Shown here one piece after another: positions 36,578-40,701 of a stretch of 64,000 nucleotides of DNA (position 1 is its first letter; every line of letters begins with the position of its first letter). The position numbers and the translations under genes are program-made. The notes under the pieces were generated by a model. The model did no database searches, was not told the origin of the DNA, and saw nothing but the letters and a program-made list of their open reading frames with translations. This DNA comes from an uncultured Gemmatimonadales bacterium (GTDB lineage Bacteria; Gemmatimonadota; Gemmatimonadetes; Longimicrobiales; RSA9), in contig CAVUKA010000005.1 in NCBI GenBank assembly GCA_963741945.1, positions 384,001-448,000 of the forward strand, written 5' to 3'.

Positions 36578-37465
36578 TCAGCCTTTCAGGCCGGTCAGCT
36601 GGATCCCGCGAATGAAGTACCGCTGTGCGAAGACGAACAGCACAAGGATGGGGAGGATGGCCACCACGGACGCCGCCATCTGGTACGGCCAGTTCGCGTA
36701 GTAGATGCCGGCGAAGCGGGCGATCCCCACTTCCACGGTGCGCATGTCCGTGGAGCGGGTGACGATGAGCGGCCAGAGGAACCCCTTCCACTGGTCCACG
36801 AAGATGAAGAGCGCCACAGTGGCCAGCGCGGGCCGGGCGAGCGGGAGGGCGATGCGCGTGAACACCCTCCATTCGCTGGCTCCGTCGATCCGGGCTGCGT
36901 CCTCCAGGTCCCGGGGCACCGACAGGAAGTACTGTCGCAGGAGGAAGATCCCCCAGACCTGCACCAGCTCCGTCACGATCAGCCCCTGGAACGTGTCCAC
37001 CCAGCCGAACGCGTTCACGAGCAGGAAGCGCGGGATCAGCAGCACGATCCCCGGCACCATGAGCGTGGAGAGGTAGAGCAGGAAAATGCGGTCGCGCCCC
37101 GGGAACTCCAGCCTGGCGAACGCATAGCCGGCCGTGGCCGAGGAGAGGAGCGTCCCCAGCACCACGGCCACACTGGTCACCCCGGAGACCAGGAAGAACC
37201 GCCCGAACGGCAGCGCGGTCAGCGCTTCCGGGTAGTTCTGCCACCGCGGGTGCGCGGGTACGAGGGGCGGTGGGAAGCGGAACACCTCCAGCTCATCCAT
37301 GAGCGACGTGCTGACCATGTAGAGGAAAGGCGCCAGCATCGTGAGCGCCACCACGGACAGCAGCGCGTACGTCAGCGCCCGCCTCCACCCCGCCTCGCCG
37401 TCGCTTCCTCCCCGGCCGACCCCCTTGAAGCGCCTCTCCGCGGCACCCGCCATGCCCGCGCTCAT
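36578..37465 (-). CDS. Carbohydrate ABC transporter permease (MalG-like)
   Basis: AGYAFARLEFPG and the EAA loop LEDAARIDGA. Confidence 0.92.
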   Translation of the reverse strand: MSAGMAGAAERRFKGVGRGGSDGEAGWRRALTYALLSVVALTMLAPFLYMVSTSLMDELEVFRFPPPLVPAHPRWQNYPEALTALPFGRFFLVSGVTSVAVVLGTLLSSATAGYAFARLEFPGRDRIFLLYLSTLMVPGIVLLIPRFLLVNAFGWVDTFQGLIVTELVQVWGIFLLRQYFLSVPRDLEDAARIDGASEWRVFTRIALPLARPALATVALFIFVDQWKGFLWPLIVTRSTDMRTVEVGIARFAGIYYANWPYQMAASVVAILPILVLFVFAQRYFIRGIQLTGLKG

Positions 37466-39162
37466 GCCCGCTCCCTCCCGATCCACCGCCACTGCGCCAT
37501 GGTCAGCGCGAAGACCACCGCGAACAGCACCCATGCCATGGCCGAGGCGTACCCCATCCGCAGGTACTCCCACGCGTTCCGGTAGATGTGGTACACGATC
37601 ACGTCCGTGGCGTGGAGTGGGCCGCCCTCCGTCATGACGTACACGGCGGTGAACACCTGGAACATGAAGATCACCATGGTGACCAGCACGAAGAACGTGG
37701 TGGGGCGGAGCAGTGGCAGCGTGATGTGGCGGAAGCGCTGCCACGGCCCGGCCCCGTCCATGCGCGCGCTCTCGTACAGGCTGGCCGGGATGGACTGGAG
37801 CCCGGCCAGGAAGAGGACCATCATGTAGCCGGCGTACATCCACACCGACATGATCTGAAGCGACAGCATGGCCGTGGCCGGCGACGTGAGCCAGGGCAGT
37901 CCGCCGAGTCCCAGCCGCTCCAGGACCAGGTTGAAGAGTCCGAAGTCCGGCTCGTATATCCACTTCCAGACCAGGCTGATGGCCACGAAGCTGGTGATGT
38001 AGGGGAGAAAGAGGATCGCCCGCACCACGCGCACCCCCCGGAACGGCCGGTTCACCAGCAGCGCCAGCCCGAGCGCCACGGCCATGCCCACGGGCACGAA
38101 GAGCACGTAGACGGCCGTGTTGGCGAGCGAGTGGAGAAACGCCCCGTCGCCCGCAAGCTCCACGTAGTTGGCCAGCCCCACGAACGGGCGCTGCGGCTCG
38201 ACCAGGTTCCAGCGATGGAAGCTGAGCCAGAGCGCGAACGCGATCGGCCCCAGGGAGAACACCAGCAGGTGCGCCAGGGATGGCGCGAGGAAAGCCCAGC
38301 CCGTGGCCGCCTCGCGCAGCGCGAGCCGCTGCCGGTCGAGCGGAAGGAGCGACACGCCCACCCCCGCCACCACCAGCCACGCCGCCCCAACCACGCCCAC
38401 CGCCGGCGCGGCCCGCGGGGCCAGCAGCACCACGGACGCGGCAAGGCCGGCGCCGGGAGCCAGGACGGCTGCAGCGCGCATCCACGCCGGCCGCGCTTCG
38501 GTGATCCGGAGCGCGAGCCAGGCAAGGACGAGCGCCACCACACCCCCCAGGAGCGGCCATCCCGCGAAACGGGCGGGGAACGGCCCGCGCCGCGCCACGA
38601 CTACGGCTCCCAGCGTCTCCCACTCCGTTGCGTCGTGCAGCGGCGCCACCGCCACCATTCGGCCGTCCATCCTGGCCTCGAACGGCCGATCGAGGCGGTC
38701 CAGCCGGGCCACTACCCCCGCGGGCAGCCGCCGGGGGAATGCAGGGCCAGGCTCCACATTCCACAAATGGCCGGTCTCGCCATGGTCCTTTCCCACAATG
38801 TCCTTGTGGCTCGTACCGGAGTCGGGGGCAACGCCGGATTGTAGACCGGAAAGTGGATTGTGGAGCCTGGCCCTGGGCCGGGGCAGAGCCGTACTCAGCG
38901 CAAAGCCGGCGTCCGAGCGGCGGTACATCGCCACGTCGTAGCTGTCCCCGGCAGGGAGGATCGCGGCTCCGACCGATATGGACCCGTTCTCCGCCGCGTC
39001 CGGGGCCAGCGCGCGCCACCGCTCCGCCACAGCTCCGGCCACCGTCGCGTCCGCCGCCGACCGGCCCTCCCGCGCATGCGCGCCGACCAGCCCCGACATC
39101 AGCGCGGCCGAGAGCGCGAGTGGCCCGAGGATGAGCCAGCCCCGGACGGCGCGGCCGGTCAT
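37462..39162 (-). CDS. Carbohydrate ABC transporter permease (MalF-like) with a long N-terminal extension
   Basis: FVGLANY, LYESARMDGA and VMTEGGP in the C-terminal half. Confidence 0.88.
   Translation of the reverse strand: MTGRAVRGWLILGPLALSAALMSGLVGAHAREGRSAADATVAGAVAERWRALAPDAAENGSISVGAAILPAGDSYDVAMYRRSDAGFALSTALPRPRARLHNPLSGLQSGVAPDSGTSHKDIVGKDHGETGHLWNVEPGPAFPRRLPAGVVARLDRLDRPFEARMDGRMVAVAPLHDATEWETLGAVVVARRGPFPARFAGWPLLGGVVALVLAWLALRITEARPAWMRAAAVLAPGAGLAASVVLLAPRAAPAVGVVGAAWLVVAGVGVSLLPLDRQRLALREAATGWAFLAPSLAHLLVFSLGPIAFALWLSFHRWNLVEPQRPFVGLANYVELAGDGAFLHSLANTAVYVLFVPVGMAVALGLALLVNRPFRGVRVVRAILFLPYITSFVAISLVWKWIYEPDFGLFNLVLERLGLGGLPWLTSPATAMLSLQIMSVWMYAGYMMVLFLAGLQSIPASLYESARMDGAGPWQRFRHITLPLLRPTTFFVLVTMVIFMFQVFTAVYVMTEGGPLHATDVIVYHIYRNAWEYLRMGYASAMAWVLFAVVFALTMAQWRWIGRERA
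38742..38875. mobile_element. MITE-like palindromic element within a CDS
   Basis: 23-bp terminal inverted repeats CAGGGCCAGGCTCCACA(T/A)TCCAC, 22/23 identical. The interior is lower in GC and has internal hairpins. Confidence 0.65.
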
Positions 39163-40463
39163 GGCCCCGGCTCCAGGAGACCGTCGATCCGCACCGCCAG
39201 GTCGTGCGCCACAGAGTCCACGGGCTCACCCGCCACCAGCGGCCGGTCGAGGAGGTCGAACAGCGCGTCCTGCACTTCCCGCCACTTCTCGACTCTCGCG
39301 CCCCACGTGTTGCGGCCCGTGGGCACGGCCTCCAGGAACACCCGCTCCCGGCCCGTGGTGTCCCCCGCCGCCACCTCCTCGGCCACTTCCGGGATCGATG
39401 GCACGGCCAGCCCGCTCGCCGCGCGCATCCGCTGCGCGGTGGTCGAGGAGAGGAAAGCGGCCAACTCCACGGCCCAGCGACGGTGCTCCGCCGCCTTCGG
39501 CACCGCCCACCCCGACGCGTACAGCACCGTTACCGGGTCCACTCCTGCGCGGGTCGGCATCGGCACCACGCCATAGTGCAGCCGCCCCGCTGCCTCCTGC
39601 GGCGCCAGGGTCGGTCCCGCCCAGTGCCCGGACTGGAGCATGGCCACCTGGCCGCTGTAGAACATGCGGCTCAGACCGCCCAGGCCGCGTCGGAACATCT
39701 CGACCCTCGGCGCGACGCGCCATTTCCGCACCAGGTCCAGGTAGAATGAAACCGCCGCCACCGTGGCCGGGGAATCCAGGTAGCCCGTGGCCCGGTACCC
39801 GCCATCGTCGCGGGCCCCGAGCAGCTCGCCCCCACCCGCCCAGATCCACGTCTGCAGATAGAAGAAGTCCCGGGGCCATCCGAACCCCCAGACGTCCGGC
39901 TCACCATCCCCGTCCCTGTCCCGCGTCAGCCGCCTCGCCGTCTCCAGGAACTCCGCCCACGTCCATCCCGCCCGCGGATACGGCACGCCCGCCGCATCGA
40001 AGACGTCCTTGTTGTAGTAGATCACCATCGGCGTGAAGTCCTTCGGGAACGCCCACAGCGCGCTGTCCCCCGAAGCGGCCGGCGTTCGGAAGAGCGACAG
40101 GATCCGCGGATCGTACGCCGGCAGGTCTACGCCCACCCGGCTCACATACGGCGACAGGTCCAGCAGCACGCCCCGGTTCACGAACGCCGGGATGTCGATC
40201 CCATCCAGCAGGAACACGGCCGGCGGGGCGCCCCCGGCGATCGAGATCAGCACCTTCTCACGGTAGATCCCTGACCCTTCCAGCGACTCCATGCACACCG
40301 GGATCTCCGGATGCCTCGTCCGGAACGAGTCCACCACCGCCCGGTCCAGCGACAGCTCCCGGTAGTCCGCCCACGAAACCGCGCGGATGCAGTCTCCGTC
40401 GCTACCACCGCAGGCGGCGAGCAGCGCCACCACTATTACCATGCAGTTGATCAGTGCGCGCAC
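39159..40463 (-). CDS. Sugar ABC transporter substrate-binding lipoprotein
   Basis: Lipobox LAAC, YYNKDVFDAAG, WTWAEF and FYSGQVAM. Confidence 0.9.
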   Translation of the reverse strand: MRALINCMVIVVALLAACGGSDGDCIRAVSWADYRELSLDRAVVDSFRTRHPEIPVCMESLEGSGIYREKVLISIAGGAPPAVFLLDGIDIPAFVNRGVLLDLSPYVSRVGVDLPAYDPRILSLFRTPAASGDSALWAFPKDFTPMVIYYNKDVFDAAGVPYPRAGWTWAEFLETARRLTRDRDGDGEPDVWGFGWPRDFFYLQTWIWAGGGELLGARDDGGYRATGYLDSPATVAAVSFYLDLVRKWRVAPRVEMFRRGLGGLSRMFYSGQVAMLQSGHWAGPTLAPQEAAGRLHYGVVPMPTRAGVDPVTVLYASGWAVPKAAEHRRWAVELAAFLSSTTAQRMRAASGLAVPSIPEVAEEVAAGDTTGRERVFLEAVPTGRNTWGARVEKWREVQDALFDLLDRPLVAGEPVDSVAHDLAVRIDGLLEPGP

Positions 40464-40512
40464 TTTGACTATCTTTGTTCGTTCCGTTCCGATCTCGACT
40501 TCAGGAGGATCC

Positions 40513-40701
40513 ATGGACGAGGTGGCCAAGGATGCAAAGCGGCTGCTCCTCCGGTACGGCGCTCCCATCGCCGTCGTTAATCAGCTATCGGACGATGACC
40601 GGATCAGTTATGCGCGATCCATCGTGCGCACCACGCTCGGCGATCGGCCGGCAAAGGTGAAAGAGCTCCTGTCCGAGGGTGGGTGGCTCGACCAGGGCTG
40701 A
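40513..40701 (+). CDS. Small hypothetical protein (62 aa)
   Basis: AGGAGG RBS, helical sequence MDEVAKDAKRLLLRYGAP..., followed by a terminator. Confidence 0.7.
   Translation: MDEVAKDAKRLLLRYGAPIAVVNQLSDDDRISYARSIVRTTLGDRPAKVKELLSEGGWLDQG

Follow-up and report, generated by a model that had tools for sequence, protein, structure and literature searches.

A probable TIRtron-type TIR dimer in frame in a sugar ABC permease gene, and a family of dimers whose lengths suggest looped synapsis

The stretch of DNA analysed here (64,000 nucleotides, the window) carries a gene for a sugar ABC transporter permease that contains a short element bounded by terminal inverted repeats (TIRs). The permease gene is neighboured by the gene for a solute-binding protein (39159-40568) and by a second permease gene, in the setting of a sugar-uptake operon with glycoside hydrolases. 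Throughout, G000 denotes the genome of origin and G001 a congener, C a contig and L a locus. The features of the locus are as follows:

37462-39162, negative strand: host gene, sugar ABC permease (UgpA/MalF-like, 566 aa), with BPD_transp_1 at residues 361-555
38560-39090, negative strand: predicted extracytoplasmic Cache/PAS-like domain, residues ~25-201 (low-confidence model, mean pLDDT 52.9)
38743-38874, no strand: TIR dimer, 132 bp in the family register (38742-38875 with the paired outer bases)
38742-38764, positive strand: left terminal inverted repeat, equivalent to the 5′ end of the TIRtron at G000:C1:754735-755837
38853-38875, negative strand: right terminal inverted repeat
38768-38794, positive strand: subterminal motif set common to the family dimers and TIRtron 5′ ends
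38730-38736, positive strand: 7-nt direct repeat, copy 1, 6 nt outside the left end, a tentative offset target duplication
38877-38883, positive strand: 7-nt direct repeat, copy 2, 2 nt outside the right end

The original prediction described a palindromic, MITE-like element with 23-bp inverted repeats differing at one position. The arms are indeed 23 nt long and 96% complementary, and form the strongest among 25 inverted pairs in 38500-39100. The further pairing of CCGGTCT with AGACCGG is present in the sequence and in the predicted fold, as is an internal CCACAA-N5-TTGTGG dyad, however the dyad is not kept in other copies. On both strands the element folds far better than shuffled sequences, with z-scores of -4.1 on the positive strand (1 of 200 shuffles as good) and -4.5 on the negative strand (0 of 200). 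The segment is also poorer in GC, as first noticed (61% versus 71% for the open reading frame), with a GC3 of 0.66 in the insert versus 0.90 and 0.92 in the flanking parts of the gene. A sigma-70 promoter and terminator scan returned none, and the single Rfam match, MIR815, is at chance level (20.5 bits versus 63).

A length of 134 bp, not a multiple of three, had been a puzzle and had raised the suspicion that the true boundaries differ slightly. They do: in the CGGAC...GTCCG register of the family the element is 132 bp and corresponds exactly to codons 97-140 of the permease on the negative strand, and these 44 whole codons remove the puzzle. The extra base on each side of this register is partly symmetric in the family (0.56 versus 0.33 shuffled). 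The permease reading frame stays open through the element, as had been claimed. That no target-site duplication could be recognised holds for the sequence abutting the element, where none is found; instead, the 7-nt direct repeat stands 6 and 2 nt outside the ends. The focal left arm contains TGGCC (arm positions 26-30), CATG (39-42), and a C-run (50-52), and its subterminal stretch is identical to the 5′ side of the TIRtron at 19 of 32 positions and to the 3′ side at 12 of 32. Contigs of read run X1, patchy over the window, show one joint and two loose ends, all matching a paralogous copy, and no empty allele of the focal site was found in this patchy cover.

The segment represents an in-frame insertion into the permease, absent from all five orthologs whose N-terminal domain could be aligned (41 genomes searched; L012 and L013 unparsed and left out), confirming the gap expected from the original prediction. 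Between shared anchors the focal permease has 55 residues, that of G001, in the same genus, 18, and that of G019 10, the length of the insertion site differing among orthologs. As G001 holds 18 residues against 55 here, its site is not a clean empty one, and the exact breakpoint is unreadable from the orthologs. A feature of the G001 permease may be a TIR scar, a tentative reading.

Ends of this type have 12 matches in G000 at up to four mismatches, with two further pairs added by a looser motif, and they bound five dimers (132, 132, 133, 176, and 172 bp in the family register), two 1.1-kb elements, and one degenerate direct pair. Rather than a single-copy segment whose peptide persists in orthologs around a broken repeat, the copy count thus gives five dimers and two transposase-bearing elements, alongside the gap in the orthologs. 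At G000:C1:1185522-1185632 (L003), two degenerate TIR copies of the same orientation, 87 bp apart, occupy an intergenic region. A second genic dimer of 132 bp (L002, C1:1047465-1047596) is read in frame close to the start of a ZnuA-family protein, placed after a hydrophobic leader and absent in 4/4 aligned orthologs. The permease and ZnuA-like copies use different reading frames and encode unrelated peptides. G001 has a TIR-like stub of 14 nt at the ZnuA-like site, suggesting that an earlier insertion there has since collapsed.

Several sites are common to the two congeners. The second TIRtron of G000 (C1:1228131-1229233, L040), adjoining a gene that we take to be pntB, has its orthologous site at G001:C2:166510-167610 (L043), where it is frameshifted. 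An intergenic site before what is presumably a ctaA-like gene holds dimers in both genomes (G000:C2:61354-61529 and G001:C6:1297411-1297584). Dimers at the same site differ in length between G000 and G001 (176 and 174 bp at ctaA, 172 and 226 bp on C3) and their interiors align poorly, while at ctaA both arms have changed alike. The sharing of the ctaA, C3, and pntB sites indicates that mobility is slow. Beside ctaA, G021 carries a whole TIRtron with another TIR type (L039), suggesting that the site is a hot spot or an old TIRtron locus. A solo AGGGC-type TIR occurs directly 3′ of a histidine kinase-like gene in G001 (L022:1500-1525; C3:186747), and none of the four G001 TIRtrons seen has the AGGGC end type.

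The search for a cognate transposase recommended with the original prediction succeeded, the enzyme with the same ends being a HUH tyrosine transposase and not a DDE enzyme. The 1.1-kb element at C1:754735-755837 encodes a 324-aa HUH/Y1 protein with a Y1_Tnp domain (PF01797) above cut-off and a weak HTH_23 match below it (E 0.0086); the RAYT equivalog NF047646 scores 72.1 bits against a cut-off of 80 (E 4e-20). Residues H59, H61, and Y118 are invariant in 91 homologs. By source name, homologs of the enzyme are from Longimicrobiales. The predicted structure (pLDDT 91) resembles TnpA-REP (4ER8; Z 15.2, rmsd 3.0, 154 aligned), and the modelled residues 248-324 resemble the DnaA DNA-binding domain, domain IV (3PVP; Z 11.0, rmsd 2.0, 75 aligned). 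With DnaA-box-like 9-mers in just 25 of 322 arms, the TIR does not qualify as a DnaA box. A TIR pair flanks 29 of 32 parsed loci encoding this enzyme, TIRYT (5 of 37 loci unparsed), with nearly all TIRs starting CGGAC and the TIRYT start codon ~75 nt from the 5′ end of the element. The AGGGC end of G000 is a variant in the CGGAC register, found in 2 of 41 genomes. Among all ends of this type in G000, no DDE transposase was found, and the long elements encode HUH enzymes.

Since its ends recur on five short elements and on the 1.1-kb HUH/Y1 element, the segment is a TIRtron TIR dimer of the non-autonomous kind (TIRYT, in all likelihood TnpA-Y1 subclass 2.1), the subclass (2.1.2 layout) being assigned by domain layout and not by the authors' subclass HMM or tree. 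The MITE-like description therefore stands in that the element is multi-copy and shares its ends with the TIRtron. The idea of an undescribed repeat family does not, as the kind, TIRtron/TIRYT with TIR dimers, is already in the consulted text of PMC3733652.

The TIRYT enzyme probably moved the focal dimer and the other dimers. The dimer arms of G000 are 0.92 identical to their own TIRtron ends versus 0.47 for other genera, although identity to the TIRs of the own genome exceeds that to the best other genus in just 7 of 14 genomes, with mostly one TIRtron taken per genome. The TIRYT clade is present in 35 of 73 family genomes, plus two weak matches, and genomes with at least four dimer matches carry the enzyme in 16 of 17 cases, whereas 1 of 38 enzyme-free genomes reaches four; these counts include kin that are not independent and the unpublished G076 and G017 (15 of 16 without G076). 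A locus search with TIRYT returned one weak, uninformative locus, and exact TIR scans of genome contigs and of metagenome contigs gave 0 matches each, own-genome records possibly lying outside both sets.

Across the 73 family genomes a degenerate dimer pattern gives 273 matches versus 26 for a control. The 181 innermost pairs were taken (8 of 36 in G080, 8 of 24 in G084, and none in G076), and 161 dimers from 20 related genomes were kept by arm identity and an AT-tract filter. A stricter pattern applied to a phylum sample matched 5 of 401 genomes, of which just G005, in the same family, looked real. Dimers can be locally dense, with six in 24 kb at G083:C56:22961-46453 and three, ~3.5 kb apart, at G008:C3:683-7916.

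The lengths of the 161 dimers cluster at 121, 131, 143, 154, 164, and 175 bp, with a period of 11.1 bp (R 0.77; 0/2000 nulls); the 78 lengths unique per genome give a period of 10.9 (R 0.63; 0/2000). Below 117 bp, one or two of 43 matches look real by eye. In a search for longer dimers 75 of 114 matches were listed and 63 kept, with 10 outer duplicate pairs, one repeat, and one chance match dropped. Among the matches listed, these add classes of 186, 198, 205, 214, and 227 bp, and the resulting 11 class centres from 121 to 227 bp are evenly spaced (CV 0.15; 1/20000 nulls), with a whole-range period of 10.4 outside genus g4 and 11.1 within it. Out-of-sample phasing, again among the matches listed, is found for all copies (mean cos 0.30, 0/20000) and for genus g4 (0.37, 25/20000), and is marginal for unique values (970/20000). 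The 11.0-bp period of the short dimers failed for the 16 long dimers outside g4 among those listed (mean cos -0.30), for which lineage-specific training gave a weak result (0.15, 2462/20000 nulls). Because copies descend from few founders, the per-copy nulls overstate significance.

The arms tend to carry the TGGCC, CATG, and C-run described for the focal copy, like TIRtron 5′ ends. At positions 13-25 arms are more alike within a copy than between copies (identity 0.85 versus 0.57); the excess stops at position 25, and no within-copy pairing excess is seen across the family at positions 26-55. A GT[AG]G foot with a short hairpin is absent from the profile of 322 arms. Complete tandem duplications over the outer junction occur at 44 of 320 ends, versus 1-6 of ~315 flank controls and 0-1 of 320 inside. 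Most of them begin 4-10 nt outside the TIR and reach 1-19 nt into it. Family-wide, target duplications of at least 6 nt are found in 0 of 160 copies and no offset pair from 0 to 10 is enriched; neither CTAG nor TAG is preferred at a fixed distance. A 7-8-nt direct repeat at 6 and 1-2 nt outside the ends is present in the focal and ferritin-side copies, 2 of 7 elements in G000, both lacking in G001, and in 1 of 160 in the relatives, a tentative hint of a target duplication. At one site a dimer is present in G083 and G080, whereas G084 shows the empty site. At this intergenic G083/G080 site, L308 (G081:C143:76081-76365) has an unrelated long imperfect palindrome of short tandem units.

A mechanism can be proposed in which the focal dimer would have been placed in the permease by the TIRYT enzyme, whose helix-turn-helix may bind both TIRs on double-stranded DNA and bring them together in a small loop, while the HUH/Tyr core would nick the DNA at the ends or immediately beyond them. 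These nicks could then be repaired, or the reactions aborted, in ways that leave the junction tandem duplications and hold the two arms of a copy similar as its interior diverges. With two TIRs looped on double-stranded DNA, just those spacings that differ by helical-turn steps above ~120 bp would persist. We slightly favour the reading that TIRYT, bound to two TIRs on double-stranded DNA, forms a phased loop and nicks near the ends. The wider proposal, in which a subclass-2.1 HUH enzyme left the single-strand hairpin mode for a phased loop of at least ~120 bp, with nicks, arm rewriting, end duplications, and occasional protein loops as its products, falls a little short of even odds and is offered tentatively.

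Less probable, though still the foremost alternative, is a REPIN-like single-strand route in which the dimer acts as one long hairpin and the length classes reflect a few founder subfamilies instead of looping. The good fold of the element, the TnpA-REP-like core of the enzyme, the lack of family-wide target duplications, the dominance of one or two dimer lengths within single genomes, and the failed out-of-sample test would all fit such a route. However, the pairing excess ends at arm position 25, a GTAG foot is lacking from the TIRs, and neither the 11 even classes nor the ~120-bp floor would obviously follow from a hairpin loop; in the consulted text of PMC6006769, moreover, no REP-like sequences were found near subclass 2.1 genes.

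Somewhat less likely again, the dimers may be domesticated DNA-binding sites that the enzyme mainly binds or loops for the host (regulation, supercoiling, nucleoid), with phasing selected and insertions rare accidents. TIRtrons are few per genome and 35-46% identical to that of the focal genome, hence not recent copies, and orthologous occupancy at pntB, ctaA, and C3, together with the whole TIRtron of G021 adjoining ctaA, would agree with such a role. Duplication rates are low for most RAYT groups according to the part of PMC5581495 consulted. Presence and absence among congeners, two insertions into genes, the patchy distribution of the clade, and fresh duplications at the ends speak against domestication.

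The structure model of the permease (six sequences) predicts residues 92-140 to be an unstructured loop (pLDDT 31-36), placed with low confidence in a small alpha/beta domain that separates membrane helices 1 and 2. The modelled domain is similar to Cache/PAS sensor domains (8PY0; Z 10.8, rmsd 3.6, 131 aligned). Several family genomes (L007-L011) keep the additional membrane helix at the N terminus and the periplasmic Cache/PAS-like domain, which may together be a module for sensing or an accessory role joined to a MalF-type permease. The focal insert probably survived owing to its whole number of codons, a stop-free frame, and the variable loop of an accessory periplasmic domain, conditions under which the 44 inserted residues are most likely a neutral loop or passenger. 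It is improbable that the insert inactivates the permease, or that translation starts downstream of it; 44 foreign residues within a domain could be cited for this, however the reading frame is intact, residues 1-95 keep a GC3 of 0.90 and are 65% identical to G001 (86% for residues 142-565), and the site is one where ortholog length varies.

The comparison with Rickettsia, according to which this might be a coding-compatible repeat family, was not supported. Although two of the five G000 dimers are in frame in genes, both of 132 bp and with 5/6 and 6/6 frames stop-free, none of the 161 dimers in relatives is an internal in-frame insertion, a count that decayed genic copies would escape and that covers the 161-dimer set and not the longer dimers, some loci ending close to the element. 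Coding-like flanks in one open frame are seen in chance matches and in the focal copy, and in none of the 161. Two or three of the 161 are read through as C-terminal tails: at L132:1460-1631 (G083) a 9-nt junction repeat, amplified four times, forms with the dimer the C-terminal tail of a gene, and L145 (G004) shows a similar read-through. A search with permease residues 40-200 against 5.8 billion proteins matched the query alone among the best 8000 candidates scored. A coding-adapted palindrome family preferring proteins, like the Rickettsia palindromic elements (RPEs), is therefore very unlikely and largely refuted at the family level, the two G000 coding copies also using different frames. 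Least likely is an ordinary MITE of a DDE insertion sequence, for which the 23-bp TIRs and the 7-8-nt direct repeat near the ends of two young copies could be cited, since the long elements bounded by these ends in G000 encode HUH enzymes alone and the end in relatives is CGGAC, not the CAGGG with which ISAs1 ends begin.

The kind of element is known, and so is the phenomenon of which the in-frame insert, taken alone, is a modest example. At the family level, length classes ~10.4-11 bp apart, symmetric subterminal motifs, and duplications at 44 of 320 ends together suggest looped double-stranded synapsis, with one extrapolation test having failed. Subclass 2.1 is the second largest Y1 HUH group, present in 14.9% of strains (PMC6006769, text consulted), yet TIRYT is little studied, and its substrate and mechanism are a question that this family can address. 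With more than 200 natural mini-substrates, the family provides a rule for spacing, a minimum length, a motif in the subterminal region, and scars at the junctions, and defines a direct biochemical test. If true, the loop model would describe a HUH enzyme that recognises double-stranded inverted ends, bridging two usually separate transposition chemistries.

Among known systems the closest are the TIRtrons with TIRYT and TIR dimers (Di Nocera 2013, PMC3733652) and TnpA-Y1 subclass 2.1.2 (Quentin 2018, PMC6006769). As far as the consulted texts describe them, both they and the present family combine a HUH/Y1 transposase with a C-terminal DnaA_C/HTH_23-like domain, have TIRs instead of REP hairpins flanking the gene, and show TIR copies in moderate abundance, many of them paired into dimers, that correspond to the resident enzyme. 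The family TIR, in contrast, starts CGGAC (AGGGC in G000) and not GGGGWSAS; this motif is found in many published TIRs, with others unrelated to it in the same portion of PMC3733652, so it is not obligatory for TIRtrons. No account of length phasing, subterminal motifs, end duplications, or in-frame TIR dimers was found in the portions covered of the literature on TIRYT and REPIN elements, the supplements of PMC3733652 and PMC6006769 lying outside this scope.

The REP/REPIN-RAYT system (4ER8) shares the catalytic fold, and its inverted doublets likewise match the resident enzyme, are mostly extragenic, and have no adjacent target duplication; in-frame genic REP copies are reported in the sections consulted of PMC3733652 and, for subclass 2.4, of PMC6006769. 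It differs from the present family, in which the single arm is not a GTAG-footed hairpin, TIRYT has an extra domain of the double-stranded-DNA-binding type, and spacing classes lie about one helical turn apart. The RPEs, in the part of PMC10969869 consulted, are likewise palindromic elements of ~150 bp translated inside unrelated proteins, however about half are genic with a conserved peptide, whereas in the present family none of the 161 copies in relatives is internally genic and G000 has two of five, read in different frames, and the cognate enzyme is known. A size periodicity of ~10 bp, read as DNA-loop synapsis, is described for Paramecium IESs and in IS1/IS50 helical-twist experiments in the text consulted of PMC3464196; the enzymes there are of the DDE type, whereas here the periodicity accompanies a HUH enzyme, a class known for acting on single-stranded DNA.
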